Virus record (IMG/VR): IMGVR_UViG_3300047548_001872
Source: a virus
Lineage: Duplodnaviria > Heunggongvirae > Uroviricota > Caudoviricetes
DNA length: 64,000 nt
Direction: 5' to 3' (one strand)
Shown piece after piece: positions 30,913 through 52,166 of this stretch. The notes below the pieces were generated by a model, which was not told where the DNA came from, did not search any database, and worked only from the letters and a program-made list of their open reading frames with translations. The stretch's first letter is position 1. Each line of letters opens with the position of its first letter. Made by a program: the position numbers and the translations under genes.

Positions 30913-30915
30913 AGT

Positions 30916-31935: not shown

Positions 31936-31942
31936 GCCCAGA

Positions 31943-32275
31943 TTAATAAATGTTAGCGATATTTTTCTCAACGATAATTTCTCTCGCATCGCAAACAACG
32001 TGATGCTTAACACCTACACCTTCAAATTTTTCCGAAAAGGTTCTTGATTTACAATTAATGATGATTTCAGAAACAAAAAACTCGTTTCCATTTAAAATTA
32101 ATCTCCATTTTTGTGTGCCATCGGTATCGTTGTTGTTGTACCGAATTCTTACCAAAGTCGTTTCATTCTCTTTTTTGAAGAGGACTTTTCTTCCTTCGGA
32201 AATCATTTTCTGAATTTGTTTCACCTGATTACCCATGCCTAAATCGTTAGAGGGATTTTGACTTGTTGATTCCAT
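31943..32275 (-). CDS. hypothetical protein
   Basis: 110 aa. Confidence 0.45.
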   Translation of the reverse strand: MESTSQNPSNDLGMGNQVKQIQKMISEGRKVLFKKENETTLVRIRYNNNDTDGTQKWRLILNGNEFFVSEIIINCKSRTFSEKFEGVGVKHHVVCDAREIIVEKNIANIY

Positions 32276-32756: not shown

Positions 32757-32759
32757 ATC

Positions 32760-33982: not shown

Positions 33983-35842
33983 TTAAGTCAAAATTTGAAC
34001 TCCTGAAATGTGGGCAACCCACTTTATAAGGTTATTATTAGGTGATGTGCCTACAATTCTTAAACTACCTCCACTGGCAGAAATGGTAACGGAAAAAGAA
34101 GGGCTATGGAATTTTTCAATATTATTTTGATATAATATTTGTGCCGAGCCTGATGTGTTAGATGCAACGACATAATCCAAAGAACTACTAACTTGCCCTA
34201 CACTATCATCAAACCCAAGTGTTTTAATAGTTATTAAAAGAACATAACCATCAGGGATATTAAATAATAATGATGCTCCATCTAAATACAAGTCAGTATT
34301 TCCTGCCGTTGAATTTGAGTTAAATGCCGTTGCATCTATTTGCTGAACATCACCATTAGTAGTAATACATCCTGACGCATGCGCTCTCTCTCCATACCTG
34401 AACGCTTTAGCAGCAACCCCCCCTAAAATAGAAGAGTATTGCCCACAAGCAGTGTTTTCTTTTCCACCTACCACTAAAGCTAAATCACAGTTTGCAACAT
34501 TATCCGTTCCTCCACCGATGAAAGTAAGTCTACAATTGCTATAGTTATTGTATCCACCTACAATCGAATTCAATTCCCCAAAAGCTCTGTTTGAAAACCC
34601 ACCACCAACAAAGCCATAACAATTTCGTGCGTAGTTGCTTTTACCCCCACCAGTGAAGCTATAGTCCCCTCTTGTTGTGTTAATATATCCCCCACCAATG
34701 AAACTAAAACATCCCAATGCAGTGTTACAATATCCGTTTCCGACAAAACTAAAACATCCCGATGCAGTGTTACATTGCCCATTTAATATAGTAGAATAAT
34801 TTCCTGATGAATTATGGTTAAGCCCATTTATAACCACCCCATACTGAGATGAAGATGTGTTATCTCTTCCATTTCCGACAAAACTATATAATCCAGATGC
34901 GCTATTGCATTTTCCATTTACAACTGAACTAAAATTGTAAGATGCGGTGTTAAAATATCCGTTTCCGACTGAACTATAACCTCCAGATGCGGTATTTTGT
35001 TGCCCCCCAGCAACGGAACTACAATATCCTGATGCGGTATTATAACGACCTGCGCCAACGAAACTATTATATCCTGATGCGGTATTACAATACCCCCCAC
35101 CAACGAAACTGCTGCCTCCTGATGCGGTGTTTAAATAACCTCCACCAATTGAACTAAAACTGCATGATGCGGTATTGTATCGTCCGCCACCAACTGAACT
35201 AAAACCGCATGATGCGGTATTACAAAACCCTCCACCAACGGAACTATAATTTCCTGATGCGGTATTATAAAGCCCTCCAACAACTGAAGATGCTAATCCT
35301 GAAACTGTATTTGAAACCCCTGCACCAATAAAAGATTCATTGCAAGACATAGTGTTGCATTGCCCCGACACAATTGCGGAAGCCGTTATACCATATGCTA
35401 CGGAATTACAATTACCAGCACCTATAAAAGCACTATAACCACCATTACTGTTATATGAACCAGCTCCAATGAAAGCCCTTCCCCCATTAACAGTGTTATT
35501 GTACCCTGAGCCAATAATAGCGTTTGTCCCTACATTACAATTGCTTGACCCACCCACGATAGAGTTGTAGAGTCCGCCAACGTAGTTGTTTACACCGCCT
35601 GAAATAGACCCATTATTACCACTGGCAACATTATTCCCTGTTTTTGGGATTATGGAGTCGCCTTGGTCATATTCGTATGGACTATTACCCCCTAAATTAC
35701 TTACGTAATTTGATAAAGGTTCGGTATTTCCTTGAACGTCTTTAAGCATTAAAACGCCTGTAACACCATCTACAAAAACAGCCAAGCTATTTCCTTCGGG
35801 AGATGTTATGTTATATGGTTGTGATTTAGTTACAGTTCCCAT
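33983..35842 (-). CDS. vertex fibre/spike protein with Gly/Asn-rich repeats
   Basis: 619 aa. About 20 copies of a ~15-aa repeat NTASGxxSxVGGGxx. The N-terminal 50 aa are shared with the next gene. Confidence 0.6.
   Translation of the reverse strand: MGTVTKSQPYNITSPEGNSLAVFVDGVTGVLMLKDVQGNTEPLSNYVSNLGGNSPYEYDQGDSIIPKTGNNVASGNNGSISGGVNNYVGGLYNSIVGGSSNCNVGTNAIIGSGYNNTVNGGRAFIGAGSYNSNGGYSAFIGAGNCNSVAYGITASAIVSGQCNTMSCNESFIGAGVSNTVSGLASSVVGGLYNTASGNYSSVGGGFCNTASCGFSSVGGGRYNTASCSFSSIGGGYLNTASGGSSFVGGGYCNTASGYNSFVGAGRYNTASGYCSSVAGGQQNTASGGYSSVGNGYFNTASYNFSSVVNGKCNSASGLYSFVGNGRDNTSSSQYGVVINGLNHNSSGNYSTILNGQCNTASGCFSFVGNGYCNTALGCFSFIGGGYINTTRGDYSFTGGGKSNYARNCYGFVGGGFSNRAFGELNSIVGGYNNYSNCRLTFIGGGTDNVANCDLALVVGGKENTACGQYSSILGGVAAKAFRYGERAHASGCITTNGDVQQIDATAFNSNSTAGNTDLYLDGASLLFNIPDGYVLLITIKTLGFDDSVGQVSSSLDYVVASNTSGSAQILYQNNIEKFHSPSFSVTISASGGSLRIVGTSPNNNLIKWVAHISGVQILT
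34400..35400 (-). repeat. degenerate ~45-nt coding repeats (NTASG..S.VGGG units)
   Basis: Periodicity visible at the protein level across residues ~150-480. Confidence 0.6.
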
Positions 35843-35850
35843 GTTTTTTT

Positions 35851-36456
35851 TTAAATTTTTATTACCGTTAGTATTACCGATGGAATTTCAGGGTATGGAA
35901 TAACCAAGTTGGCTGGTTCGGCTACAATCTTAATGTTTGTTGTAGGCGTGAGCCAAACAAGTTCTGCATTTTCTCCAGCATTCAATTGAACAATAAAGTT
36001 CCAAGCAGCAACAATTTTTGATTGGTTGGCGTTCCCCATCATAGTTACTTTAGTATTACTATGAGGTACATCAAAACCATTTTTTCGCAACCAAATATCT
36101 ATTGCAACCACTCCACTACCAGAAACTCTGTCTAATTGTGCTGAAAATTGAATGTTATAATAACCTGTTTGAGCAACGGTTATTTTTGTATCGTTAATTA
36201 TCGAAACTCCATTAGAAACGTCAGTCATGTTGTACTTCATCGGAGTAGGGATATTATCTCCTGAAGCGGTTTGTGTTGTTGTGTCGTAAAAAGAGCCAAA
36301 AACACCTGTTTCTGGAATGTAATTTGTTATTGGTTCGGTATTCCCTAAAGCGTCTTTTAAAATAAGTCTATTAGTAATTCCATCTACAAAAACAGCAAGG
36401 CTATTTCCTTGTGGGGAAAATACGTTAGATGCCTGTGATTTATAGACTGAACTCAT
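35851..36456 (-). CDS. vertex/fibre-associated protein sharing its N-terminal domain with 33983..35842
   Basis: MSSVYKSQASNVFSPQGNSLAVFVDGITNRLILKDALGNTEP versus MGTVTKSQPYNITSPEGNSLAVFVDGVTGVLMLKDVQGNTEP. Confidence 0.55.
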   Translation of the reverse strand: MSSVYKSQASNVFSPQGNSLAVFVDGITNRLILKDALGNTEPITNYIPETGVFGSFYDTTTQTASGDNIPTPMKYNMTDVSNGVSIINDTKITVAQTGYYNIQFSAQLDRVSGSGVVAIDIWLRKNGFDVPHSNTKVTMMGNANQSKIVAAWNFIVQLNAGENAELVWLTPTTNIKIVAEPANLVIPYPEIPSVILTVIKI

Positions 36457-36463: not shown

Positions 36464-36829
36464 TTAAAATATTTTATCCCAGAACTTTAAAATAAAAGTC
36501 CAAAAAACACCTACCGCAACACCTCCACCAACAAGTTTTGCTTTGAAGGCTTTGTCATTTTCGATATACTTATCATGCTCATCGACTTTGTGCAAGATGT
36601 TGATATGTTTACAATCATCGATGAACTTTTTGTTTTCTTTCACTTGTTCGACCAAACCAATCTGTCCATAAGCTGAGTCACCTATGATGGTTGTGTTTAG
36701 CTTCTCGCAAGTTTTGTCAACAGAATCTACCTTTTTAGTCAATTCCGTTAGTGTTGTTTTTATAAAATGTATATCAGTTGCGCTGACGGTTATGGTTTCT
36801 TGGGCTTTTTTTGTTCTTGTTAAAGCCAT
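36464..36829 (-). CDS. tail-anchored membrane protein
   Basis: C-terminal TM segment VGGGVAVGVFWTFIL. Confidence 0.45.
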   Translation of the reverse strand: MALTRTKKAQETITVSATDIHFIKTTLTELTKKVDSVDKTCEKLNTTIIGDSAYGQIGLVEQVKENKKFIDDCKHINILHKVDEHDKYIENDKAFKAKLVGGGVAVGVFWTFILKFWDKIF

Positions 36830-36840
36830 ATTTTAAAAAT

Positions 36841-37242
36841 TTATATTCCTACACCTAAACTTTCTAACTGTTTCGCCAAAGTAACATTTTTCACATTTTT
36901 GTTTCCGACATAATAAGACAAAAATATTTGCTCTTTATGTTTTAATATGAATGCATTCGCTTCAAGTGGTGAAACATTAGCCTCTTCTGAGAAATTAACG
37001 ATACATTGACCTAAAAACGGAGTAGCGAGTTGTTCGTATCCTAAAAAGTCAATTTTTTTGTCCATAATTTCAAGAAAAGTAACGGTTTCAACTACGGAGA
37101 AATCATTACACATTTCATATTTCACATGCCCTTCTTCGGTTATGCTAACTTTGATTTGAACGTTGTCGGATGATTGGTTGAATTTTTTAGCATATTTGTT
37201 CAACCCAGTCATCATAATTTTTTTGACAATACCATGTATCAT
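36841..37242 (-). CDS. hypothetical protein
   Basis: 133 aa. Confidence 0.45.
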   Translation of the reverse strand: MIHGIVKKIMMTGLNKYAKKFNQSSDNVQIKVSITEEGHVKYEMCNDFSVVETVTFLEIMDKKIDFLGYEQLATPFLGQCIVNFSEEANVSPLEANAFILKHKEQIFLSYYVGNKNVKNVTLAKQLESLGVGI

Positions 37243-37277
37243 TTTGTTGTTTATTAAAGTTTCTTGTGTAAAAATAA

Positions 37278-37838
37278 TTATTTTAAACCAAAAAGTCCAA
37301 AGAGTTTTGGGTATTTGGCTTTAAATTTTTCGAATGGCTTGTCCAAGTTATACTCCCGTAAAAGGTCAGTTGAATAAGTGAACGATTCTTTGTCAAATTT
37401 CAATGTAGTAGGTATGCCTAAAAAGACTACCTTAACTTCGCCAGATACTTGAATATCGATTGGTTTTCTTTCAGCAACATCTTTCAAAAATGGAAGCAAC
37501 GCAGTCTTGGTTTCTGCAATGTTGATGCTTCCTTGCCCAACTACTTCAAAAGTTGAATTAGGCTGAATCATAATCGATGTATCGCTTGCCGTGTTAGCAA
37601 ACTGTTTGTCTTTGAAGAATAAATCAATGTCGTATGCTTTAACCTCAACTTGGAAGTTTGACCTATTGGTCAAAGCAAAAGTAGCCTCCACTTTAACGTT
37701 TTCATTATCAACGCTAATTATTTTGAAATCCTTTAGGTTGTAGTCGTAATTTAATGCCAAATCTACTTGGTATCTAAAATACCGATATAACCCAAATCCA
37801 GCGAGTGCAACACCACCAATTAATAAAACCTTTTTCAT
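37278..37838 (-). CDS. N-anchored membrane protein
   Basis: TM segment VLLIGGVALAGFGLY. Confidence 0.45.
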   Translation of the reverse strand: MKKVLLIGGVALAGFGLYRYFRYQVDLALNYDYNLKDFKIISVDNENVKVEATFALTNRSNFQVEVKAYDIDLFFKDKQFANTASDTSIMIQPNSTFEVVGQGSINIAETKTALLPFLKDVAERKPIDIQVSGEVKVVFLGIPTTLKFDKESFTYSTDLLREYNLDKPFEKFKAKYPKLFGLFGLK

Positions 37839-38356
37839 TTTCTTTTGATTAAAATTATTCCCAAAGCAAGTAAAACCACTATCCCACCAGCAATTACCCT
37901 TTGTCTTACCATTTTTTTGGTTTGCTCTTGTATTCTTAACTTATCTTGTTCTTGGTATCCTTGCAAAATCGTGTTGATTTGCTCGGTTTTCACCTCGTTT
38001 ATTTTTGATTCACAACCTTTTTTGTTGAACTCATCTTTATACTGCTTTATAAGCTGCTGAGATATAGCAACTGACTGACTGCTTCCTTGTTTTAACGCAA
38101 CATCAATAGCAGACTGCATCAATCCTATTTTCATTTCAAGGTCGAAGCAAGTGTCTTTCAAATTATCCACCCCACACCCTGATTCTAAATACTGTTTTTT
38201 AAGGGTATCATAGAAACTAAGTTGTTTGATTTCTGTGGGTCGTAAATTTGACTTTAACCGATATAATTCAAGCATCTTGAGGTAGTTTAGCTTATCACCA
38301 CAAGCATACTTACCCATCTTTTCAAAACTCGATAAAGGATTTACATACTCAGCCAT
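37835..38356 (-). CDS. tail-anchored membrane protein
   Basis: C-terminal TM segment VIAGGIVVLLALGIILI. Confidence 0.45.
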   Translation of the reverse strand: MAEYVNPLSSFEKMGKYACGDKLNYLKMLELYRLKSNLRPTEIKQLSFYDTLKKQYLESGCGVDNLKDTCFDLEMKIGLMQSAIDVALKQGSSQSVAISQQLIKQYKDEFNKKGCESKINEVKTEQINTILQGYQEQDKLRIQEQTKKMVRQRVIAGGIVVLLALGIILIKRK

Positions 38357-38359
38357 TTT

Positions 38360-38716
38360 TTACTTTTTTGACGGAATTAATAAATACAAAGAAGTCAATA
38401 AGACTACACCACCCAAGGCAATATAAACAAGTTGCTCTCTATTTTTTTTCGGAATGATTTCAGATTCTTGTTTTGAAGCTAATTCTGTTTGAATTTTACC
38501 TCCTTCTTGAATCCTTGTCATTTCAATGAAATCCCTGCATCTCTTTCCTTTAAAAGCAAACTCTAAACCAGTTTTCCAACTCTCCATCTTATTTATAAGA
38601 CCACTATTGGGGTTCGGCACTCGACGCAAATTGACAATCTCAGACATAATGTTTGAGATATGCTCATCCAAATCAAAGCAGTTGGAATTCAAAGGATATT
38701 TTTGCTCTAAAGTCAT
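38360..38716 (-). CDS. tail-anchored membrane protein
   Basis: C-terminal TM segment VYIALGGVVLLTSLYLLI. Confidence 0.45.
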   Translation of the reverse strand: MTLEQKYPLNSNCFDLDEHISNIMSEIVNLRRVPNPNSGLINKMESWKTGLEFAFKGKRCRDFIEMTRIQEGGKIQTELASKQESEIIPKKNREQLVYIALGGVVLLTSLYLLIPSKK

Positions 38717-38901
38717 TGTCTTTTTTTTGTCAATATTTTTACCATTACAATAATAAAAATTGCTCCCAACCCTACAATTGCAAATCGAATTACGTCTTTC
38801 TTTTTGTCAGACAATTCGTCGATTTTTTGCATCTCTTCATTTACGTTAAGGAGATATTCTTTAGCTCTTTGCCCTTCATTTTTATCATACACTAAACCCA
38901 T
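38713..38901 (-). CDS. tail-anchored membrane protein
   Basis: C-terminal TM segment FAIVGLGAIFIIVMV. Confidence 0.4.
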   Translation of the reverse strand: MGLVYDKNEGQRAKEYLLNVNEEMQKIDELSDKKKDVIRFAIVGLGAIFIIVMVKILTKKRQ

Positions 38902-38904
38902 AAT

Positions 38905-39396
38905 TTACTTTTTTAAGAGTTTGTAAACTAAAAATGCCCCCACGAGTACACCGCCAATCAACAAATAGTTCGTTGTTGCCTTTTTGTTTTTTGGTTTGGC
39001 ACTTGCTTGTTGTGCTTGTGATGGAGAATTAGGTGTGTTTCCCGAATCAACAAGACCACTTTCAGTTTTTATAGGCGTTGTTGTTGAACCTTGAGAGAGG
39101 TTGTTTGCCGTTGGTTTCGGAGGAATGACGTTTATAATTTCAGGAACTGTTGTGGTCGGTTGTGCGCCACCAATTACGCTTGGCTCTTTTGGAGGTGCAA
39201 TAGTTACAATGTTTCCTGAAACAACCAAAGATGGAGGCGGAGCTACTTCTTCCTTTATTGATGGTATTTGTGCCTCATACAAGCCCAAAACAGGTCTTGC
39301 TGGTGCTGGTTGCACGTAAGTTTCAGAGTCAAATATACCACCAACATTATTCGTATTGGTTGGAGTTTGTAACGGCATTGATTCTAAGGTAAGCAT
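38905..39396 (-). CDS. Pro/Thr-rich tail-anchored membrane protein
   Basis: C-terminal TM segment LLIGGVLVGAFLVY. Confidence 0.45.
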   Translation of the reverse strand: MLTLESMPLQTPTNTNNVGGIFDSETYVQPAPARPVLGLYEAQIPSIKEEVAPPPSLVVSGNIVTIAPPKEPSVIGGAQPTTTVPEIINVIPPKPTANNLSQGSTTTPIKTESGLVDSGNTPNSPSQAQQASAKPKNKKATTNYLLIGGVLVGAFLVYKLLKK

Positions 39397-39431
39397 AACA
39401 ATTGTTTTTAGTGGTTATTTTTTGGTGAAAC

Positions 39432-39992
39432 CTATAATTTCAAAGTATCCTCTCGATAGTACAATTCTAACTTTGGTGTTAGCATTCTATTGGCTTGCAA
39501 AAACGTTTTGTTTCTGTTAAAAGCATCGATTGATTGCTGGGATGGCTTTATTTTAAACCACTTGTAAACTCTCCCTTGTGGGTTTGTCATTTTGCCCTTG
39601 TCTTCAACAACGGAAATCACTTTTCCAACATTAACTCCCGATTCTTTAATTTGTCCAAATCGATTTGTTATAATGCCATCATTCACATAATTTTCAAGTC
39701 TTGCACGAACATCTGGAACTTTGGTGAACAGTGTCTTGTTGGAAAGCAATTTAGAAGCAACCTGAACATTATTCTTTAGAATAGCATCCAAGTTTTCTGG
39801 CACGGTTGCTTGTTCAACGGAAATCTCATCACCTGTAGGAGTTATGATTGTGTTTTCTTCAACATCTGCTTGAATGGATTCAGCTTGTGCTTTGATAATT
39901 TCCTTTCGTTTTCGATTAGAAACATAAGCGTATAGCCCAATTGCCCCTAATAGAGCGATTCCTGAATATATGTAAACTTTCTTTGAGTCCAT
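39432..39992 (-). CDS. N-anchored membrane protein
   Basis: TM segment IYSGIALLGAIGLYAYV. Confidence 0.45.
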   Translation of the reverse strand: MDSKKVYIYSGIALLGAIGLYAYVSNRKRKEIIKAQAESIQADVEENTIITPTGDEISVEQATVPENLDAILKNNVQVASKLLSNKTLFTKVPDVRARLENYVNDGIITNRFGQIKESGVNVGKVISVVEDKGKMTNPQGRVYKWFKIKPSQQSIDAFNRNKTFLQANRMLTPKLELYYREDTLKL

Positions 39993-39996
39993 TTTT

Positions 39997-40206
39997 TTAC
40001 TTTTTTGCTTCTTGAATTTTTTTCATAACCTCATCATAATCTTTCTTCAATGAAGAATCATTAGTGATGTCTTTTTGGGTTGCTTTTTTAAAAGTTGCAT
40101 ATAACAAAGATGCTACTATAACGCCAACCACTCCTACGACAATATATTCTTTTTTCATATTATTGTTTTTTGAATGTCTTGTAAACGTATGCCCCTGCCA
40201 AAACAA
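39997..40206 (-). CDS. small membrane protein
   Basis: TM segment IVVGVVGVIVASLLYA. Confidence 0.4.
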   Translation of the reverse strand: MFWQGHTFTRHSKNNNMKKEYIVVGVVGVIVASLLYATFKKATQKDITNDSSLKKDYDEVMKKIQEAKK

Positions 40207-40645
40207 CCCCTGCGATTAAAGCTACATTCAAGGCTGTTTTAACCTTGTTTTCCGTGAAAAAGTTAGAGACACCTCTAAGTGTACTACCTACAACATCCTG
40301 ACTTGCTCCTACACCTTGTAAAACAGGAGCAAAAATACCAGCATTAGCAAACGGGTCTAACTTATTATCATTTACATACTTCCGAAAAGAACTATTAAAA
40401 GTACGGCAATTCAAGTTACCGCTTAAATTGCCCGATTGGGCAAAAGCATAATTCCAAATATCATTAGCGGTTTCTTGACCAAAGTGTGCTTTTAGAAGTT
40501 TGTGCCATTGAGTCCAATCTTCGCAAGCCCACCAAGTATCATTACCCCACTCATCATAATCGGGAGCAGTATTCCAAGTTTTTACAGCCATAACACTTTT
40601 TTTTGTTTTCTTTTTAAAATTAAGCAGCTTTAACTGGTTGACCAT
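40160..40645 (-). CDS. tail-anchored membrane protein
   Basis: C-terminal TM segment ALIAGVVLAGAYVY. Confidence 0.45.
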   Translation of the reverse strand: MVNQLKLLNFKKKTKKSVMAVKTWNTAPDYDEWGNDTWWACEDWTQWHKLLKAHFGQETANDIWNYAFAQSGNLSGNLNCRTFNSSFRKYVNDNKLDPFANAGIFAPVLQGVGASQDVVGSTLRGVSNFFTENKVKTALNVALIAGVVLAGAYVYKTFKKQ

Positions 40646-41084
40646 TTACCTCAACGTAGCCTAATTTAGCTAACTCATTTGATAGCCTATCAATTTCAAG
40701 TTGTGCTTTTGCGTTTGTTCCAATAATTGAACCTCTTTGTAGATTGTATTGGGTTTGCGCTCCTAAACTTGAAAATCCTGAATTTGGTCTTGATGGTGGA
40801 ACGGGTTTTATTTTTGCTCTTTCAGCAGCAATTTGCTTGGCTAATTCTCTTGCAGTTTGCAAGTTATCAATGACCTGAGCAACTTGTGTTGGGGTAGTCA
40901 GCGTTGTTCCGCTTTGTGGCGAACCCTGAGAAGCAATCAAGGCAGCTTGCGCTTGATTTATTTGACCTTGTGTCAAAAGACCTCCTGATGCTTTTTTCTG
41001 AGCATTTTTAGACTTAAAGTATAAATATGCCCCAGCTCCTAAAAGCGTTAATGCTACTCCTCCTATAATTAAATTTCTACTCAT
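40620..41084 (-). CDS. N-anchored membrane protein
   Basis: TM segment LIIGGVALTLLGAGAYLY. Confidence 0.45.
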   Translation of the reverse strand: MSRNLIIGGVALTLLGAGAYLYFKSKNAQKKASGGLLTQGQINQAQAALIASQGSPQSGTTLTTPTQVAQVIDNLQTARELAKQIAAERAKIKPVPPSRPNSGFSSLGAQTQYNLQRGSIIGTNAKAQLEIDRLSNELAKLGYVEVNGQPVKAA

Positions 41085-41091
41085 GACAATT

Positions 41092-41397
41092 TTAAATTAA
41101 ATCAGACAATGTTGTTTTGTCAACTTGATACACTTCTTTGAGACGGGCTTCAGTCTTTGACCCAAAAATTCCATCAACAACCAAATTACCAAGTTTTTTT
41201 TGCAACTCCTCGACTTCTTTCCCACGACTACCCTTTGCCAAAACTAAAGAATAATCCAAGTCATCGCCAAGAACTTTTGATTTTTGTTGGTAATGCTTAA
41301 AAACAAAGTATGCACCAATTAAAATTAGTGCAGACGACAAATACAAGATTGTGGTTTTATTTTTCATTTCCTTCTTGATTAGGTTCGTTTTGACCAT
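41092..41397 (-). CDS. N-anchored membrane protein with peptidoglycan-binding domain
   Basis: TM segment plus GSRGKEVEELQKKLGNLVVDGIFGSKTEARLKEVYQ (PG_binding_1-like). Confidence 0.5.
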   Translation of the reverse strand: MVKTNLIKKEMKNKTTILYLSSALILIGAYFVFKHYQQKSKVLGDDLDYSLVLAKGSRGKEVEELQKKLGNLVVDGIFGSKTEARLKEVYQVDKTTLSDLI

Positions 41398-41572
41398 TAT
41401 CGGCAGCCTCTATTGGGGGCTTTAAAAATTCATCTTCTGAACTGATGTTTTCCGAATCCTTTTTTGTTGGTGCTTTTGGTTTTACATTTTTTACAGAATT
41501 GTAAATCATGTAACCCGTGAATGCAATAATTACCCCTGTTATGGCTAATGCCAAAATGTTTTTTGACTTCAT
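41357..41572 (-). CDS. small membrane protein
   Basis: TM segment ILALAITGVIIAFTGYMIY. Confidence 0.4.
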   Translation of the reverse strand: MKSKNILALAITGVIIAFTGYMIYNSVKNVKPKAPTKKDSENISSEDEFLKPPIEAADNGQNEPNQEGNEK

Positions 41573-41784
41573 TATTCCTTAGTTAATGCAAACCCTATTG
41601 CGAATGAAATTACGGCTACCACTACTACTGTATTGAAGTCGTACATTTTTGTTCTCAAGGGCTTTATTTGTTGAGATGTTGTTTCTTGTAACTTTGGCAA
41701 TTCTTTACCAGCTTTAACGATAGCGGTTTCCTCCGCTTCATTAAAATTTTCAATGTCGAATTTAGCTCCTGCAAAAGTTCCCAT
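41572..41784 (-). CDS. tail-anchored small membrane protein
   Basis: C-terminal TM segment VVVAVISFAIGFAL. Confidence 0.4.
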   Translation of the reverse strand: MGTFAGAKFDIENFNEAEETAIVKAGKELPKLQETTSQQIKPLRTKMYDFNTVVVVAVISFAIGFALTKE

Positions 41785-41790
41785 ACTGAT

Positions 41791-42576
41791 TTATTTTAAA
41801 ACCATGTTCTTTTTTTCAAAATTAGTGATAAAAGCATTGATTTTATCATATCTGGATTGATTTTGTATTGTAGGCGTTCCTAAAAAAACCTCCAAAAACG
41901 CTTGATACGCTTCGATTCTTGGATAGCCAAGACCCAAATAGATTAGCAATCCATTTAAGTCAGCCTCGGTCTCATCGTTAATATCATCATTCAGATAGAA
42001 ATGACTAAACTCATGGCACAAGATTGCAAATCGCATCGGAACTGTGTACTCATCGAATTTCTTCTTGCTTACCTGAATTCTACCTGTGGTTCTCGAAATC
42101 CGAGCAGGCGTTGATGCCTCTCCTCCATTTTTGCTTGGTATGATTGGTAAGTATTCAATCAAAAACTCGTTGTTGTCGGAAGTGTATGATTTGTTTGCTT
42201 CCAAATATGGGGAATTGAAGCAAAATCGTTGCGCAAAATCGACGAAATAATAAATGGTGGGGTTTGTTATGTCAACCACATCCAATCGCTTCTGTAAAGG
42301 CGTTTTTTCGATTCCTAAAACCCTAATATTCTTCTCTTGTTCTTTGGGCAAATTACCTCTTTTTTGGTCATACACAGAAACAATAACTGAGTTAGAAGTA
42401 ATAGGCATATTTACCATAAAAGTAAACTTGTTTGAAACTGTTTTGTACCTGTCCGTAAAAACAATTTTTGGTTTTTCAGCATCAACAATTTTGATAACTA
42501 CAACCGTCGGTGTAGTCACCTCAACGGTGATTGCCAAACACATCTCTTCAAAACGAGTATTTATTCGAAAATTCAT
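41791..42576 (-). CDS. putative zinc metallopeptidase (HExxH)
   Basis: FAILCHEFSHFYL contains HEFSH. Otherwise unassigned. Confidence 0.4.
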   Translation of the reverse strand: MNFRINTRFEEMCLAITVEVTTPTVVVIKIVDAEKPKIVFTDRYKTVSNKFTFMVNMPITSNSVIVSVYDQKRGNLPKEQEKNIRVLGIEKTPLQKRLDVVDITNPTIYYFVDFAQRFCFNSPYLEANKSYTSDNNEFLIEYLPIIPSKNGGEASTPARISRTTGRIQVSKKKFDEYTVPMRFAILCHEFSHFYLNDDINDETEADLNGLLIYLGLGYPRIEAYQAFLEVFLGTPTIQNQSRYDKINAFITNFEKKNMVLK

Positions 42577-42878
42577 TTCTTTCTTTTTTGGTAAATACTA
42601 TATCCAATACCAGCAGCTATGATTAAAATAGAAACCCCAATAGCAACATTGCTTAACCCGATGAAATTAGATTTTGCCTTTGGGTTTTCCCCAAGACCTA
42701 AATCTCCTTCTTTGTTATCATCAAATTTGCTTAAAAGATTGCTTTTCATCGAGGCTAAGGTATCTTGAACTTTTTTATTCAAGATGAAATTACCCTTTTC
42801 TTTTTCTCTTTCAATCCAGTCTTTGAAGGAAAGGGTTGTACCGCTTTCTCTCCATAGTTGATTTGCACTCTTATCCAT
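42573..42878 (-). CDS. tail-anchored membrane protein
   Basis: C-terminal TM segment VAIGVSILIIAAGIGY. Confidence 0.45.
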   Translation of the reverse strand: MDKSANQLWRESGTTLSFKDWIEREKEKGNFILNKKVQDTLASMKSNLLSKFDDNKEGDLGLGENPKAKSNFIGLSNVAIGVSILIIAAGIGYSIYQKRKK

Positions 42879-42879
42879 A

Positions 42880-43041
42880 TTATTTTGTTGTTGTTTGAGG
42901 ATTAACTTTCACCATAGATTTCAAGTCTTGAAATTCGGCTTCTACTTCTTGTTTGGGCTTTAAATAGCCTCTGTAAAGGAACACTAAAGCACCTACGCCA
43001 ATGGTAACTAAAACTATTCCCGTTATTTGCTTTTGTGTCAT
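42880..43041 (-). CDS. micro membrane protein (53 aa, below ORF-track cutoff)
   Basis: MTQKQITGIVLVTIGVGALVFLY... Confidence 0.35.
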   Translation of the reverse strand: MTQKQITGIVLVTIGVGALVFLYRGYLKPKQEVEAEFQDLKSMVKVNPQTTTK

Positions 43042-43089
43042 CTTTAGTCGTTTTTAATTAGTACTTTCTTGTAAAGATACGTTTTACAA

Positions 43090-43260
43090 TTAAAGTTGAC
43101 TACCTTTTAAGGGTTTTAATTCAACTTTTTCTTCAGTAGCTAAAACGGCTTCTTCCTTCACCTTGGGTGCGGAAACTTTATTTCTTTTCGAGAAATAATT
43201 ATAAGCTAAAACGCCTAATACTACTACACCTGCTCCGATTAATAAATTTTTGTTTTTCAT
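43090..43260 (-). CDS. micro membrane protein (56 aa)
   Basis: MKNKNLLIGAGVVVLGVLAYNYF... Confidence 0.35.
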   Translation of the reverse strand: MKNKNLLIGAGVVVLGVLAYNYFSKRNKVSAPKVKEEAVLATEEKVELKPLKGSQL

Positions 43261-43270
43261 GATTCAAATA

Positions 43271-43405
43271 TTAAGCTGTTTGACTTTTTTTCCATGCACG
43301 ACCTACTAAATAAACTGCTGCAAAAACAGTGATTGCCGTAACTGCTAAACCACCTACTAATTGCATAGTTGTTGGTTTGTTTTTTTCATCAAAAAATGTG
43401 TCCAT
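43271..43405 (-). CDS. micro membrane protein (44 aa), paralog of 43434..43547
   Basis: ...QLVGGLAVTAITVFAAVYLVGRAWKKSQTA. Confidence 0.35.
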   Translation of the reverse strand: MDTFFDEKNKPTTMQLVGGLAVTAITVFAAVYLVGRAWKKSQTA

Positions 43406-43433
43406 GACTTGTTTTTTTTTAAAAGATTAATAA

Positions 43434-43547
43434 TTAGTTTTTCTGGCTTTTTTTCCAAGCCTTTCCTGCAATATATACAGTTCCGTAAATTACGGCTAAT
43501 GATAGTGCCAATCCTAACACTCCCATTACTAAGTTTGGTTTTTTCAT
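43434..43547 (-). CDS. micro membrane protein (37 aa), paralog of 43271..43405
   Basis: MKKPNLVMGVLGLALSLAVIYGTVYIAGKAWKKSQKN. Confidence 0.35.
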   Translation of the reverse strand: MKKPNLVMGVLGLALSLAVIYGTVYIAGKAWKKSQKN

Positions 43548-43551
43548 GATT

Positions 43552-43779
43552 TTACTTTCTTACAATTATTGATGTAGCCACACCTCCAATAATACCCCCA
43601 ACAAGACCAGAGATGTAAATATTCTTGTCTTTCCAATAACCCACCATAAGACCAATCAAAAGACCCGTTACAGCGCCCTCAACCGATGCTTTGGTAGTGA
43701 GCTGTAGAATCTCTCTTTTGTCTTTATCGGTAATCTGCTTAACTTCTTGAAGATAGTCTTTCGTAATAGGCATAATCAA
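43552..43779 (-). CDS. small membrane protein with glycine-zipper-like TM segments
   Basis: GAVTGLLIGLMVGY and GLVGGIIGGVATSIIV. Confidence 0.45.
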   Translation of the reverse strand: MIMPITKDYLQEVKQITDKDKREILQLTTKASVEGAVTGLLIGLMVGYWKDKNIYISGLVGGIIGGVATSIIVRK

Positions 43780-43780
43780 A

Positions 43781-44089
43781 TTATTTTCTTGTTACTGCAA
43801 ATATTACTAAACCCAAAACAAAAACTCCCCCAACACCTAAACCAATATATAGAGGCAAATTGCTTTTACCATCACCTTGTTTTGCTCCTTGTAGTTGAGC
43901 TAATGCGGTTTGCTGATTAATTTGAGCAAGCTGAAGTTGTTTGTCTGCAATTTCTTTTGCATTATTTGCTTGTTCTCTTGCTAAATCTCTTTGTTGTTTG
44001 CTGCCAAAAGCAGCAACACCTAAGCCTAACACAGAACTAATGCCACTTGCGATAGCACCTTGACCTAATTCAGTTGAAAAAAAACCCAT
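43781..44089 (-). CDS. membrane protein
   Basis: GAIASGISSVLGLGVAAFG plus C-terminal TM segment YIGLGVGGVFVLGLVIFAV. Confidence 0.45.
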   Translation of the reverse strand: MGFFSTELGQGAIASGISSVLGLGVAAFGSKQQRDLAREQANNAKEIADKQLQLAQINQQTALAQLQGAKQGDGKSNLPLYIGLGVGGVFVLGLVIFAVTRK

Positions 44090-44091
44090 AA

Positions 44092-44367
44092 TTATAAATT
44101 TAGTTTATCTTGATTTTTATCTACCCAAATAGAAAAAGCCTTGTTAAAAGACACGTTTTTTCTTAACCCATTAAACACGGCATCAATTAACTGATTAGTA
44201 TCAAAATTCTCTGCATCAATTGTAACCCCATTTTGGTTAAGCAATATTGCTATTTCCATAGGGTATAATCCAACCGATTGCCCAATCAATTTTGAAATTT
44301 GCTCCTGATTCATACTATTGATTTTTTTTAGAAACAAAATAGATGATTCCTCCAATAACAGCCACAC
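44092..44367 (-). CDS. hypothetical protein
   Basis: 91 aa. Confidence 0.4.
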   Translation of the reverse strand: MWLLLEESSILFLKKINSMNQEQISKLIGQSVGLYPMEIAILLNQNGVTIDAENFDTNQLIDAVFNGLRKNVSFNKAFSIWVDKNQDKLNL

Positions 44368-45031
44368 CTAAAACACCTAATAATATGTAAGTACCAGTGT
44401 TAGAACCTTTGGTCTGAGGACTTACATCAGATGCTTGTGGAATGTTAATTGACGGGCTTCCTTGTGCTTGCGCTTGCGCTTTTGTTGCCTCTGCGATAGC
44501 AATATTTGCTTCGTTTGTACTTTTCGTCTTTAAGAAGTCTAAAGCCATATTACCAACAGTAAAAATACTTGTCCAAAGCCCTTTTGGAGCTGCCGTTGCT
44601 TGACCCTCGCTTGTTGAAACTAAAGGAGGTGTCGAAGGAGCGTCTTTTTGAGTGCTAAAATCTAAGCCAAATTGAAATGGCGAACCTGTTGCGTTGTTAT
44701 ATCCACCATCCATTCTTAGGTATTGGGCTTCCTCAACAAATCTAAAGTAATCCGCTTCTTCGGTGAAACCAAAGAATTGTGGGTCTTCGGTGAAGTTTTT
44801 AAACTCACCAAAAATTCTTCCTAAAACAACTGGTTTTGCTAAAAACGCACGTAAATCCTTGTCAAAAGACTTGGAAACTTTCATTGTTGTGACAATCAAA
44901 TCAACGATGTCTCTATCAGATGCTCTGGGTGGAACAATAACACCATTTTTTTTCAACAAAGAAACCATACTTTGCTTGTAGTACTTAACGAGCAATACAA
45001 TAATCATTGCTCCCATATTTTCTTTTCCCAT
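44315..45031 (-). CDS. tail-anchored membrane protein
   Basis: C-terminal TM segment YILLGVLGVAVIGGIIYFV. Confidence 0.45.
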   Translation of the reverse strand: MGKENMGAMIIVLLVKYYKQSMVSLLKKNGVIVPPRASDRDIVDLIVTTMKVSKSFDKDLRAFLAKPVVLGRIFGEFKNFTEDPQFFGFTEEADYFRFVEEAQYLRMDGGYNNATGSPFQFGLDFSTQKDAPSTPPLVSTSEGQATAAPKGLWTSIFTVGNMALDFLKTKSTNEANIAIAEATKAQAQAQGSPSINIPQASDVSPQTKGSNTGTYILLGVLGVAVIGGIIYFVSKKNQ

Positions 45032-45035
45032 TTTT

Positions 45036-45437
45036 TTATTTTTTAAGAATTAATGCCGTTGCAATAAATAATGCTGAAACCACCAAAATCACATTGGTTT
45101 GATGCGCTAATGTAGTGGATTCTGACTTTGCTTTTCCAACAATTTCACTTCCACTTGCATTCATGAAGTGTTCTTGATAATTCATTCGTGCTTTTGAGGT
45201 TGCACAAGACGGACAATTGCATCCTGAATTTGAATCTTTGGAGTACATTTCTAAAATGATTTCCTTATCAGGGTGAAAGTCCATAATTTTTTTCAAGGCA
45301 GGCTCACCTACTTGATTTACCAACTCGCTTAAACTTTGACCTAAGTCTTTGTTTGAAACCACCTCATAACCAAATGAATTGATAATTGAAATAGCCCCAT
45401 TCGGGTCGGATTCGGCAATATATTTGTAAACATTCAT
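45036..45437 (-). CDS. tail-anchored membrane protein with Cys motif
   Basis: CNCPSCATS. C-terminal TM segment VILVVSALFIATALIL. Confidence 0.45.
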   Translation of the reverse strand: MNVYKYIAESDPNGAISIINSFGYEVVSNKDLGQSLSELVNQVGEPALKKIMDFHPDKEIILEMYSKDSNSGCNCPSCATSKARMNYQEHFMNASGSEIVGKAKSESTTLAHQTNVILVVSALFIATALILKK

Positions 45438-45531: not shown

Positions 45532-46224
45532 TTACGCTTTCAACTTGATGGTTTGACCATTAGTTACAGGCGGAGTGCCGAATTGTCTGCTTACTGGTTG
45601 ACCTCCCAATGCACGAGCAAGGTTGATATTATCAGCAGGGTAGAAGTACAATTTCAAGGTGGCGTTAGCCAAAACTTGACGGATGATGATTTTGGTGAAA
45701 CCATCGATACGGTAAGCGTACTTCATCGCAATGATGTTCGTTTGTTGCTGATATGGGTCAATTGTTGGCACTAAAGTTTTTTGCGCCAAGTTACCATTTG
45801 CGTCACGAGTGTTTACGGACAACGTTTCCAAAACTTGGTTAGCCGTAGCAGACTGAATGTAAGTTAAACCTACACTGTACGGGTTGTTCATGAATTGGTA
45901 AAGCATTTCACGGTAAGTGATGTCAGGAATACCTGAACTGATTGTTACCGAACCTACAACTAAGTCTCCACCTGAAGTGAAACCTGAGTTGTTGATGTAT
46001 TGGTAAGAACCTAATACTTCAAAATTTGACACGGCAGAACCTGAAGTGGAAGTTACCGTTACGATGTATGGTTGAGAAGTTTGAACGTTCCCTCCCATTC
46101 CTGATGCGTTGAAGAAGTCATCACCTGTGAATGACAAGTCTTCGTCAATGAAACCATCTGCATTCGCAAAATTTTCCATTGCATTACGCTGGGCAGTTGC
46201 TAAATAGCGTCTTACGTTTGACAT
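45532..46224 (-). CDS. candidate major capsid/coat protein (beta-rich, jelly-roll-like)
   Basis: 230 aa, rich in T/S/G/V/N/Y. A monocistronic-looking unit with a strong downstream terminator. No motif-level proof. Confidence 0.35.
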   Translation of the reverse strand: MSNVRRYLATAQRNAMENFANADGFIDEDLSFTGDDFFNASGMGGNVQTSQPYIVTVTSTSGSAVSNFEVLGSYQYINNSGFTSGGDLVVGSVTISSGIPDITYREMLYQFMNNPYSVGLTYIQSATANQVLETLSVNTRDANGNLAQKTLVPTIDPYQQQTNIIAMKYAYRIDGFTKIIIRQVLANATLKLYFYPADNINLARALGGQPVSRQFGTPPVTNGQTIKLKA

Positions 46225-46532
46225 TTTGTTTTGTTTTTGATATTGTTAAAAAAATTTTTCAAATTCGGTTGACTACCCGATTACTTTGTTGCATCTGTTT
46301 TCTTGGTTAAGAAGTTAGTTTGAACATAGTTCGCAACTAAAACGCCTACCACAACAGTACCAACGGCTTTCAAAAAAGGAACAACTTGATTCATTTCAGA
46401 ATGATTATTGATTAAACTTATTTTTTTTAATAATTATTTACAGAAATAATATTGTTCCAAATTTATAATACTATTTTTTTTAAACGTTAGCAAATCAAAA
46501 CATTATCCTAAAATTATAAATGCGCTATAATT

Positions 46533-46961
46533 TTAGTTTACGACTAAGACAAAAGCCAATGCTAATGTTGCAAGAGTTGTCAATTTGTAAAATACAGTCT
46601 TTCGCTTCTCGGATTTAAGTTCCGCTTCTCTTTGTTTTAGCTGCTCTTTAAAAATATCCCTTTGCTCATCCTTATTAGAAATGATACTTTCCAAATTGAA
46701 AATCTGTTTATCCTTATTGAAGATAATACTGTCTTTTAAGGAAACCTTCTCTTTGAGTAACTTGAAATTTTCCCGAACAATTTTTATTTCGGCTTTACAT
46801 ACATCACCATTAACAAGGTCATTGGCTACCTTTCGTGCTATGGAGGTGTCGATACACACCAAGCGTAAGGAATCATTTTTTTTGCTTGTATCGTTCTGTG
46901 AAATAGCGTTCCCACATGCGAGCATCATAATGCTTAAAACGATTAATTTTAACTTTGCCAT
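46533..46961 (-). CDS. lipoprotein with coiled coil and C-terminal TM (u-spanin-like architecture)
   Basis: Signal peptide plus lipobox IMMLACGN, coiled coil, and C-terminal TM segment LTTLATLALAFVLVV. Overlaps the upstream gene by ~90 nt. Confidence 0.4.
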   Translation of the reverse strand: MAKLKLIVLSIMMLACGNAISQNDTSKKNDSLRLVCIDTSIARKVANDLVNGDVCKAEIKIVRENFKLLKEKVSLKDSIIFNKDKQIFNLESIISNKDEQRDIFKEQLKQREAELKSEKRKTVFYKLTTLATLALAFVLVVN

Positions 46962-47226
46962 CTTTTCTGATTTTTTCGATTATTTGATTGTTCTCATCGA
47001 TTTTGTCGTCGATGCTTAATATTTTGACTTGAAAATCTTCTATCTTTTTTTGATATTCTTCATTTTCCTTCCGTAGTTTTTTTATCTCTGATTCTATCTC
47101 ATCTATTCGCTTGACCATATAGTCATTGCTAATAGAAGTAGTGTAGTTAAAAAACATTGTTACAAAAAGCAATACCAAAAGAATACCTCCAAGTATTAAA
47201 CTCGATTTGTTTTTTATTTGCTCCAT
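46873..47226 (-). CDS. N-anchored coiled-coil membrane protein (i-spanin-like)
   Basis: TM segment LILGGILLVLLFVTMFF, then a charged coiled coil. Partly overlaps 46533..46961. Confidence 0.4.
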   Translation of the reverse strand: MEQIKNKSSLILGGILLVLLFVTMFFNYTTSISNDYMVKRIDEIESEIKKLRKENEEYQKKIEDFQVKILSIDDKIDENNQIIEKIRKDGKVKINRFKHYDARMWERYFTERYKQKK

Positions 47227-47227: not shown

Positions 47228-47755
47228 CTAACTTTCGTTTTGAGAAATTACACCTTGACTATTTAGTCTTATGACTCTAACATTATTTGGCCGCCTAACT
47301 TTCCAAGAAGTACGACGAATTGCACTAAGTCTTGATTTTTCAATTCTTACAACACAAACCGAATTGTTTTGATTGCCCCCAAGCACATGATAGCACACAT
47401 CGTCTTCACCTACATAAATTCCTACGTGACCGCCTCCCTTACGCTTAAAGGTAAGTACATCGCCAAGCATGGCAACTGTTTGCCTTGTGCCAAACTTATT
47501 CCAATTTAATGCCCAAAGACCATCTTGATAGGAGAAAGGGATATCCAAGCCTGCTTGATGGATGACATACCCCATGAATAATCCGCACCACGGAATTTCA
47601 TCAGCTTTATAGATATTCTCTAAGTCTAAAGTTTTTGCCCAGCCTAAAATTGTAGGGTTATGCTTGCTCCCCACAATTTCTTTTACCCCGATTAGCTTTT
47701 TAGCCTCGACCAAAATTTTTGGGGCGTTTTCTTGATTCAAATAATTGTAATTCAT
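47228..47755 (-). CDS. CHAP/NlpC-P60-family peptidoglycan peptidase (endolysin candidate)
   Basis: Catalytic Cys context EIPWCGLFMGYV and His GGGHVGIYVG. Confidence 0.55.
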   Translation of the reverse strand: MNYNYLNQENAPKILVEAKKLIGVKEIVGSKHNPTILGWAKTLDLENIYKADEIPWCGLFMGYVIHQAGLDIPFSYQDGLWALNWNKFGTRQTVAMLGDVLTFKRKGGGHVGIYVGEDDVCYHVLGGNQNNSVCVVRIEKSRLSAIRRTSWKVRRPNNVRVIRLNSQGVISQNES

Positions 47756-52155: not shown

Positions 52156-52166
52156 AGGGATAAATT

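Follow-up and report, generated by a model that had tools for sequence, protein, structure and literature searches.

The 64,000-nt window analyzed here, a stretch of the IMG/VR virus record IMGVR_UViG_3300047548_001872, has a G+C content of ~35% and is organized in a plus-strand block (positions 1–27,300) and a minus-strand block (27,445–64,000). The subject of this work is an array of 25 consecutive minus-strand open reading frames (ORFs) at positions 36464–45437, which encode proteins of 37–261 amino acids (aa) and are separated by gaps of 0–48 nt or overlap. The array lies in the late/structural strand block, between the gene of a candidate capsid protein and a pair of fibre genes. A first-pass annotation of this DNA had described it as about 30 consecutive genes for small membrane proteins of 37–240 aa; the consecutive run and the smallest size are correct, but the genes number 25 and the largest product reaches 261 aa.

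Membrane anchors were called from Kyte-Doolittle (KD) hydropathy, using a 19-residue window and a threshold of 1.6. A single terminal hydrophobic segment at or above this value is present in 21 of the 25 array ORFs. The ORF at 37278–37838 falls below threshold (KD 1.3), yet displays a clear Gly-rich N-terminal anchor, KVLLIGGVALAGFGLYRYF, and its inclusion brings the anchored set to 22 of 25, ten with an N-terminal and 12 with a C-terminal anchor. Nearly all anchors are flanked by Lys or Arg. The N-terminal ones begin with an M-K/R-K start and have Lys or Arg after the helix; the C-terminal ones are mostly followed by two to six residues, including Lys/Arg, and then by the stop codon. The anchors are also rich in Gly (13.5%), with a small-xxx-small motif in 12 of 21, a composition that would favour helix packing. 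Three ORFs lack an anchor: 36841–37242, 44092–44367 and the HExxH protein at 41791–42576, whose hydrophobic stretch resembles a β-strand.

When the residues of the array proteins were shuffled, a mean of 3.1 out of 24 scored positive for a transmembrane (TM) segment (maximum 8, 200 shuffles), as compared with the 22 of 25 anchored in the real array, in keeping with the earlier observation that nearly every ORF carries one terminal TM helix. Processed by one pipeline, the densest 9-kb stretch contains 21 TM-positive ORFs of 25 in the array, 8 of 22 in PRD1, 4 of 16 in the Salisaeta phage SSIP-1 and 7 of 15 in crAss001, for which bases 1–50,000 (the structural half) served as the control. The density thus exceeds that of this tailed-phage structural module, as had been proposed. 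The plus-strand block of the window has only 8 TM-positive ORFs among ~62. Anchored proteins are also encoded beyond the array in the minus-strand block, three at 46281–47226, nine at 51559–55701 and four at 27806–29983, for a total of ~38.

The array recurs in related genomes. A search of IMG/VR for syntenic arrays, suggested at first pass and carried out with the 230-aa gene at 45532–46224 as the query, gathered 38 related loci, and gene order is collinear in all 38. The 10 kb downstream of this gene, which encodes a predicted jelly-roll protein, always contains 21–26 co-oriented ORFs, 12–21 of them with a TM segment. A core formed by 45036, 43552, 42573 and 41791 is present in 31–36 loci, and 37278, 36841 and 36464 in 9–16, the rest being variable or lineage-specific. 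In the deep relative L060, the jelly-roll gene is followed by 23 small ORFs, and 18 of the 25 called genes of the locus are TM-positive. In a second deep relative, L064, the order is ATPase, 33-aa TM ORF, jelly-roll gene and array, with recognisable homologues of 45036, 42573, 41791, 37278, 36841 and 36464. Judged from these sequence comparisons, the array is a conserved trait and not a local oddity. Homologues are found on contigs of 95–137 kb that recur in many viromes and in IMG/VR, and the exact proteins of the window sit on a 101,032-bp JGI contig; the genome is ~101 kb long. Against 50,697 phage records, no match was obtained by megablast of the array or by tblastn of the 356-aa protein (48940–50010) and the 230-aa protein, and a literature search did not find a lineage of this kind described.

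Several array members display features of their own. The HExxH protein named at first pass has its motif invariant among 33 homologues, as HEFSH, together with a downstream E.EAD..GLLIYLGLGYPRIE that is likewise invariant in the 33 sequences. Its homologues extend to L064 (46% identity) and L060, and it has no family match in Pfam, PHROGs or NCBIfam. The peptidoglycan (PG)-binding protein also named there is less secure: 41092–41397 does match PG_binding_1, but weakly (E 0.004), below the Pfam cut-off. A faint LEA_2 match occurs in L060 at the array position equivalent to 37278–37838. The first array gene, 45036–45437, conserves the residues FGY, GEPAL, HPDK and CxC. Weak paralogy was detected among soluble N-terminal domains, linking that of 44092–44367 to those of 44315–45031 (z 6.3) and 29429–29983 (z 4.5), and 29056 to 29429 (z 4.7) and 45036 (z 4.4). 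Such similarity runs among the N-terminal domains of several tail-anchored proteins, and duplication may account for the growth of part of the array. In addition, 43781–44089 is weakly similar to the C-terminal part of 44315–45031 (E 1e-4).

The four unannotated micro-ORFs reported at 42880–43547 do exist, encoding 53, 56, 44 and 37 aa, and the two regarded as paralogs, the 44-aa product ending in GRAWKKSQ and the 37-aa product ending in GKAWKKSQ, are related with an E-value of 1e-8. The motif G-K-x-W-K-K-S-Q is kept across 40 homologous ORFs. The micro-ORFs are intact in 6–26 of the 38 related loci, and nonsynonymous change (pN) remains below synonymous change (pS) despite saturated synonymous sites. 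A reading of these ORFs as spurious was rejected because of this conservation and the invariant motif.

The 230-aa protein is the product of the lineage's most conserved gene, with a median identity of 84% as compared with ~30–68% for most other genes of the locus. It has 1608 homologues, the best 120 of which are all at least 89% identical, and the wider family forms 862 clusters at 50% identity, mostly of 200–260 aa. An earlier AlphaFold2 run on a shallow alignment (31 sequences at ≥89% identity) gave a predicted local distance difference test score (pLDDT) of 37 and was discarded. With a diverse alignment of 120 representatives of the 50%-identity clusters, the pLDDT rose to 88.5, and to at least 94 over residues 50–200. 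The fold prediction covers the 230-aa protein and consists of an N-terminal helix, a flexible linker and a β-sandwich jelly roll, single and ~180 residues long. Its best structural matches include STIV, PRD1 P3 and P31, PM2 P2 and phiCjT23 P5, with further matches to the PR772 spike and picorna-like coat proteins; there is no close relative in the PDB. Profile searches against PDB sequences with the jelly-roll, ATPase and 562-aa (62191–63879) families gave nothing significant, and when 120 members of the jelly-roll family were searched against PHROGs, a single one of them gave a match, to an unannotated family.

The jelly roll is not confined to this gene. A 153-aa paralog is encoded on the minus strand at 28254–28715 (E 1e-9 to 9e-11), and relatives carry a third paralog that adjoins polyvalent-protein genes, sitting between these and a glycan-synthesis cluster; its single form is seen in L038:605–1267. 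Tandem fusions of two jelly-roll domains are found in P0247 (397 aa, L057:10001–11194, on a 107-kb contig) and P0271 (411 aa, L063:10001–11236). Each genome has at least 2–3 paralogs, which are not adjacent. Judging by its domain organization, the tandem-fused paralog may mark a naturally occurring step from single towards double jelly-roll capsid proteins.

Between the jelly-roll gene and the array, a hairpin with a U-run, a putative terminator or attenuator, is preceded by a conserved TGTATAAT motif (extended −10-like) that occurs once in the window. Hairpin, U-run and motif are co-located in most of the 38 loci, with differing stem sequences. A hairpin and U-run in this position are expected behind a very highly expressed structural gene. 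A scan for sigma-70 promoters and terminators over 33–50.5 kb returned counts equal to those of shuffled sequence. From the conservation of the 230-aa protein, its jelly-roll model, its paralogs, and the hairpin with its U-run, we infer a role as major capsid protein.

Upstream of the jelly-roll gene lies the only candidate for a packaging ATPase in the late block, a 272-aa protein with a Walker A motif GRKGCGKT, a Walker B motif LLLIED and no nuclease domain. Its matches to AAA_22 and DUF87 (HerA) in Pfam are sub-threshold, it weakly matches phrog_2666, ‘terminase large subunit’ (E 2e-4), and a PDB profile search with the family reached HerA at E 0.035. In L064, the ATPase gene adjoins the jelly-roll gene with just the 33-aa TM ORF between them. 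The size, position and lack of a nuclease domain would fit the small packaging ATPases of membrane-containing viruses; those of the Bamfordvirae (PRD1-adenovirus lineage) belong to the FtsK/HerA superfamily (A32/P9-type), have about 200–270 aa and are encoded beside the capsid gene. These genes, the array and the neighbouring features are collected in the table below.

Table. Features of the minus-strand block. KD, highest hydropathy value; loci, occurrence among the 38 related IMG/VR loci (L064, homologue in that deep relative); values after family names are E-values.
Position	Strand	Feature	Evidence and occurrence
27806–29983	−	Third cluster: 153-aa jelly-roll paralog flanked by four TM-anchored proteins	
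30043–33617	−	Auxiliary cluster by the fibre genes	APS kinase 1.3e-14; sulfotransferase 6.7e-20; cytidylyltransferase-like 1.4e-7
33983–36456	−	Two fibre/spike proteins, 619 and 201 aa	Immediately follow the array
36464–36829	−	121 aa, C-terminal TM, last array gene	KD 1.64, residues 99–117; 9 loci; L064
36841–37242	−	133 aa, soluble	KD 0.85; 11 loci; L064 (E 2e-16)
37278–37838	−	186 aa, N-terminal anchor and LEA_2	Pfam LEA_2 3.2e-6, above cut-off; 16 loci
37835–38356	−	173 aa, C-terminal TM	KD 2.35; KRK after anchor
38360–38716	−	118 aa, C-terminal TM	KD 2.37; 8 loci
38713–38901	−	62 aa, C-terminal TM	KD 2.55; KKRQ after anchor
38905–39396	−	163 aa, Pro/Thr-rich, C-terminal TM, lineage-variable	KD 1.75; 0 loci
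39432–39992	−	186 aa, N-terminal TM	KD 1.66, residues 6–24
39997–40206	−	69-aa ORF, N-terminal TM	KD 2.28; start probably internal MKKEY (~53 aa)
40160–40645	−	161 aa, Trp-rich, C-terminal TM	KD 1.79; 7 loci, 43–62% identity
40620–41084	−	154 aa, N-terminal TM	KD 1.87
41092–41397	−	101 aa, N-terminal TM, weak PG-binding domain	PG_binding_1, 17.7 bits (cut-off 23); 14 loci
41357–41572	−	71 aa, N-terminal TM	KD 2.08
41572–41784	−	70 aa, C-terminal TM	KD 2.18
41791–42576	−	261 aa, soluble, HExxH (zincin-like), conserved core	32 loci, median 68% identity
42573–42878	−	101 aa, C-terminal TM, conserved core	KD 2.22; 32 loci; L064
42880–43041	−	53-aa micro-ORF, N-terminal TM	KD 2.05; 21 loci
43090–43260	−	56-aa micro-ORF, N-terminal TM	KD 1.83; 6 loci
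43271–43405	−	44-aa micro-ORF, TM and GRAWKKSQ	20 loci; pN/pS 0.67, pS saturated
43434–43547	−	37-aa micro-ORF, TM and GKAWKKSQ	26 loci; 43 intact homologous ORFs; pN/pS 0.47
43552–43779	−	75 aa, Gly-rich membrane protein, conserved core	KD 1.86; 31 loci, median 65% identity; pN/pS 0.37
43781–44089	−	102 aa, C-terminal TM	KD 2.43; 22 loci
44092–44367	−	Small soluble protein, likely 74 aa from ATG 44316	No TM; 17 loci
44315–45031	−	238 aa, C-terminal TM	KD 2.48; 23 loci
45036–45437	−	133 aa, C-terminal TM, first array gene, most widely conserved member	36 loci; L064
45456–45509	−	Hairpin and U-run (putative terminator or attenuator)	RNA fold z −4.65; between jelly-roll gene and array
45532–46224	−	230 aa, single jelly roll, candidate major capsid protein	Directly upstream of the array
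46281–47226	−	Three anchored proteins (37, 142 and 117 aa)	KD 1.95, 2.08, 2.49; 8–17 loci
47228–47755	−	175-aa NlpC/P60-type peptidoglycan peptidase	Pfam NLPC_P60 1e-4; phrog_1259 1.4e-28
48010–48828	−	272-aa P-loop ATPase, candidate genome-packaging ATPase	2 kb upstream of jelly-roll gene; 36 loci
48940–50010	−	356 aa, acidic start, basic tail, low complexity by eye	Conserved; 474 homologues, contigs up to 137 kb
50899–51546	−	215-aa PAP2-family phosphatase, no TM	Pfam PAP2 3e-10; 34 loci
51559–55701	−	Second cluster, 12 small ORFs, 9 with one TM	By KD
53090–53734	−	SLT transglycosylase with C-terminal TM	Second SLT at 54334–55035; SLT 1.4e-4 and 7.6e-7
53728–54021	−	97-aa basic Tlr6F/DUF5754-like protein	2e-5, just below cut-off; median 79% identity
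55802–61405	−	Two large proteins, 1010 and 852 aa	Repeat-rich, shared motifs, polyvalent-type by eye
62191–63879	−	Conserved 562-aa protein (see also L039:8649–9992)	190 homologues, near-constant length

The genes flanking the array and the ATPase encode further envelope-related functions. Among the three anchored proteins next to the jelly-roll gene, the 142-aa one has a lipobox-like N-terminus and a C-terminal TM segment, and the 117-aa one an N-terminal TM segment and a coiled coil. Three peptidoglycan hydrolases are encoded, two SLT transglycosylases and one NlpC/P60 peptidase, one of them membrane-anchored; the second cluster also contains a CarbopepD_reg_2 match (1.2e-8) in 52507–52929. 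As for the 356-aa protein, a scaffold, a tape measure or a DNA-binding role are guesses. A relative encodes a GDSL lipase (L058:887–1567) in a block shared with PAP2, so that lipid- or envelope-active enzymes are found inside the structural module. The Tlr6F/DUF5754-like gene is among the lineage's most conserved, and the DUF5754 (Tlr6F) family has been reported in polinton-like viruses, nucleocytoplasmic large DNA viruses (NCLDVs) and phages (PMC12220804). In the third cluster, a Peptidase_C97-like protein (3e-5) has a borderline C-terminal TM segment (KD 1.45, below threshold).

The two large polyvalent-type proteins are neighbours of the array and not members of it. DUF2958 is found N-terminally in the 1010-aa protein (1.8e-12), the 852-aa protein is without a family match, and a relative's 1465-aa counterpart (L039:3073–7470) contains ART-PolyVal (6.5e-10) and DUF5824. 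Polyvalent proteins are thought to enter the cell together with the DNA (Iyer et al. 2017, PMC5512222), and the 1010- and 852-aa proteins are possibly delivered by the virion; they do not discriminate between virion types.

Downstream of the array, the 619- and 201-aa fibres have their first ~80 residues in common (46% identity, E 1e-16). The 201-aa fibre ends in a BclA_C (C1q/TNF-like) head (1e-5) and the 619-aa one is repeat-rich. The common N-terminal segment suggests two alternative receptor-binding proteins docking on one virion site. The adjoining auxiliary cluster also holds weak GT9 and HAD matches, and relatives add ~10 kb with glycosyltransferases, RgpF, DegT, PglD and methyltransferase genes (L057). 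This gene content suggests virus-encoded glycosylation or sulfation, perhaps of the fibres or of the host surface.

The plus-strand block is devoted to DNA metabolism, with RecT, an RNase H-like protein, a GIY-YIG endonuclease and an AAA protein. It is interrupted by a minus-strand island at 6254–9235, in which a 632-aa protein is followed by a 219-aa protein, β-rich by eye and without a family match; the island may be a second host-recognition cassette. The first ORF of the window, 46–822 on the plus strand, carries tandem 22-residue repeats, CNALTSVEFPQLTQIGNDNFRV, resembling BspA-type leucine-rich repeats, and a pattern search of IMG/VR returned no relative.

The bacterial-envelope enzymes, the lipobox-like lipoprotein and a 132-kb contig of the lineage binned with a Sediminibacterium metagenome-assembled genome (MAG) point to a Bacteroidota host. 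Separately, a 158-aa protein of one relative (L039:2207–2683) contains a crAss001_48-related domain (PF21825, 1e-16) common to crAss-like phages of Bacteroides. A eukaryotic virus was rejected on account of the peptidoglycan hydrolases, the lipobox, RecT, the polyvalent proteins and the contig binned with the Bacteroidota MAG.

Taken together, these genes make it on balance probable that the array supplies both the proteins of an internal membrane and those for DNA delivery in a tailless, icosahedral dsDNA virus of Bacteroidota, which would have a large genome (~100 kb) and a lipid bilayer beneath its jelly-roll shell. The first-pass annotation had offered a lipid-containing virion and an envelope-spanning delivery apparatus as alternatives; they are not rivals, since in PRD1 one set of proteins does both. 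By analogy with PRD1, the jelly-roll gene would be heavily transcribed late in infection, with the hairpin and U-run limiting read-through into the array. The 22 anchored array proteins and ~16 others would enter the host cytoplasmic membrane via their single terminal Gly-rich anchors, and the membrane patch marked by the virus would be taken up beneath the assembling shell. Their soluble parts (coiled-coil, Pro/Thr-rich, LEA_2 and HExxH) would face the capsid and tie the membrane to the shell and vertices. If the vesicle buds into the cytoplasm, the C-terminal Lys/Arg stubs of the 12 tail-anchored proteins would face the lumen and the DNA. The 272-aa ATPase would then package the genome via a special vertex. 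Upon infection, some of the membrane proteins would reshape the vesicle to form a channel through the Gram-negative envelope, with help from the PG-binding protein, the NlpC/P60 peptidase and both SLT transglycosylases, the anchored and the soluble one. Both DNA and the large polyvalent proteins would travel through this channel.

A number of observations weigh against this interpretation. The evidence is genomic, and from it we infer the lipid, the virion location, the capsid and packaging roles, the topology and every step of the mechanism. The TM calls are based on hydropathy only. No homology to PRD1 or SSIP-1 was detected by hmmsearch and phmmer against all ORFs of these two phages, or by hhalign to PRD1 P9 and P31. 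In the case of the ATPase, the alignment to P9 is restricted to the Walker A loop; DUF87 is matched by 11 of 18 family members, with a best E-value of 1e-5 and all below the cut-off, and the remaining matches of the family are to generic P-loop NTPase families (Zot, RNA_helicase) and one unrelated family. The polyvalent proteins of the genome belong to a kind that tailed phages and conjugative elements are known to carry. The 632-aa protein has a domain of ~200 residues that recurs in tail or tail-fibre proteins encoded by, among others, Azospirillum phage Cd, Nonlabens phages and RcapMu. The 562-aa protein, whose gene in relatives always follows an AAA_5/MoxR-type ATPase, matched no family or structure in profile searches against PDB and PHROGs; possible roles for it are portal, vertex protein and MoxR partner. 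Finally, the searches for tailed-phage hallmark genes cover ~89 kb of the ~101-kb genome.

These searches bear on the alternative that survives best, although we regard it as unlikely: that the locus comes from a tailed phage (Caudoviricetes), in which the genes for capsid, portal and terminase have diverged beyond recognition or lie in the remaining ~12 kb. The array would then supply ejection or periplasm-spanning, holin/spanin-like or superinfection-exclusion proteins, and the jelly roll would be a decoration protein, a cement protein or a fibre head. All seven window ORFs of at least 400 aa were scanned against Pfam and PHROGs, and two of these and several smaller ones against NCBIfam; the scan was extended ~25 kb past the window end in the relatives L039, L041 and L044, where it included ORFs of 447, 1465 and 428 aa. 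Terminase and portal have no family match among the window ORFs of at least 400 aa and the relatives' larger flank ORFs, and neither do sheath, tube and tape measure. An HK97 capsid has none in Pfam, PHROGs or NCBIfam among the scanned window ORFs or in the relatives' flanks. What the flanks do encode is an AAA_5/MoxR ATPase, an acidic repeat protein, the 1465-aa ART-PolyVal protein, glycosyltransferases, a hexapeptide transferase, an RNase_T exonuclease, and Phg_2220_C and DUF932 proteins; most ORFs of the late block are very small. Tail-type matches are limited to domains, namely those of the peptidoglycan hydrolases to tail-lysozyme PHROGs and the fibre-type domain of the 632-aa protein, and such fibre-like domains are mobile. 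Lysis and exclusion cassettes hold a few membrane proteins, not 22–38. Moreover, it would be unexpected for a decoration or fibre-head gene to be the most conserved one or to remain linked to an ATPase across deep divergence.

Somewhat less credible is a second alternative, in which the array proteins stay out of the virion and remodel the envelope of the infected cell, as an assembly or egress platform or a surface modifier, together with the glycosylation and sulfation genes. The block does contain PAP2, a GT9-like protein, APS kinase, sulfotransferase, an LpxA-like hexapeptide transferase and, in a relative, the GDSL lipase, and about half of the array members are poorly conserved, as expected of proteins at the host interface. 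Nonetheless, the array sits between the capsid candidate and the fibres, on one strand and without internal gaps, and 45036, 43552, 42573, 41791, 37278, 36841 and 36464 are kept in deep relatives, which is typical of structural modules. That the locus belongs to a non-viral plasmid-like or conjugative element, with the membrane proteins, transglycosylases and ATPases forming a secretion or transfer apparatus, is very improbable: conjugative elements, too, often carry DUF932, DUF2958, polyvalent proteins, SLT, and P-loop and AAA+ ATPases, but candidates of the size of VirB4, coupling protein and relaxase gave no match in the ORF scans, fibre/spike genes with C1q-like heads are present, the highly conserved jelly-roll gene with its own hairpin and U-run suggests a highly expressed structural gene, and contigs of 95–137 kb recur in many viromes and IMG/VR.

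An internal-membrane proteome and its delivery proteins would have consequences beyond this window. We advance, as a plausible idea that stops short of probable, an undescribed and environmentally abundant group of ~95–137-kb tailless internal-membrane dsDNA viruses of Bacteroidota, with a shell of single jelly-roll proteins, tandem-fused ‘proto-double’ paralogs in some members and ~40 virus-encoded membrane proteins. If correct, these would exceed all other membrane-containing bacterial viruses in size by a wide margin, would be a bacterial counterpart to the large eukaryotic viruses that have an internal membrane, and would carry a PRD1-type membrane-protein operon on a scale without precedent, in a virus group that is apparently undescribed. 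The plan of an internal membrane enclosed by a jelly-roll shell would then scale up in bacteria, just as among the giant viruses of eukaryotes. The transition from single to double jelly roll could be tested directly, since one lineage contains both single and tandem-fused forms. It would also follow that marker-based phage annotation has missed a common freshwater and marine virus group, for which dense single-pass TM genes downstream of a small conserved β-rich gene and a ~270-aa ATPase provide an annotation signature. The ~100-kb lineage would come with glycan and sulfation genes of its own and with several paralogs of the jelly roll. The membrane phages compared here are small and have few membrane proteins.

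Among known systems, PRD1 provides the closest parallel in gene arrangement. Its membrane proteins insert in the host membrane, a virus-specific patch of which becomes the internal vesicle and scaffold, and several of them are needed for the membrane tube that delivers the DNA (PMC6356626). The PRD1 late operon runs P9 ATPase, gpi, P20 (TM), P3 capsid, P22 (TM), P18, P32, P34, P30, P11, P16, P7 transglycosylase, P14 and P35. Judged by genes alone, the same succession of small ATPase, tiny TM protein, capsid protein and run of small membrane proteins recurs in the window and L064, where ATPase, 33-aa TM ORF and jelly roll mirror P9-P20-P3. A membrane-anchored transglycosylase (P7 in PRD1, SLT with a TM segment here) and nearby spike genes add to the likeness. 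The differences are equally clear: the candidate capsid protein is a single jelly roll of ~180 residues and that of PRD1 a double one; the genome is ~7 times larger than the 14.9 kb of PRD1; there are ~38 membrane-protein genes as compared with 9 TM-positive ORFs counted in PRD1 by this pipeline; and neither a protein-primed polymerase nor a terminal protein was seen, the replication module resembling that of ordinary phages.

With at least 2–3 single jelly-roll paralogs per genome, the lineage also invites comparison with P23-77/IN93, Sphaerolipoviridae, Simuloviridae and SSIP-1. P23-77, IN93 and SSIP-1 have tailless internal-membrane virions built with two single-barrel capsid proteins and an ATPase (PMC6356626). 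In the Helvetiavirae type, the two capsid proteins are encoded side by side, whereas the paralogs are non-adjacent here. SSIP-1, which infects a host of the Bacteroidetes group, is the largest membrane phage compared, with 43.8 kb and 15 TM-positive ORFs. Large eukaryotic internal-membrane viruses (Nucleocytoviricota such as chloroviruses, and polinton-like viruses) enclose a membrane in a large jelly-roll shell, have numerous TM-anchored minor proteins and bear fibres glycosylated by virus-encoded sugar enzymes. The Tlr6F/DUF5754-like gene is a point of likeness to Nucleocytoviricota and polinton-like viruses; unlike in Nucleocytoviricota, the signals of the host point to bacteria, the genes have a prokaryotic structure, and NCLDV core genes were not detected. 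The first-pass suggestion of a PRD1/PM2-like internal membrane proteome therefore holds at the level of architecture (jelly roll, ATPase and gene order) and not of family membership, given the lack of sequence homology and the single jelly roll. By these comparisons, the virus is neither a tectivirus nor a member of any family compared, and by gene content it resembles a tectivirus.

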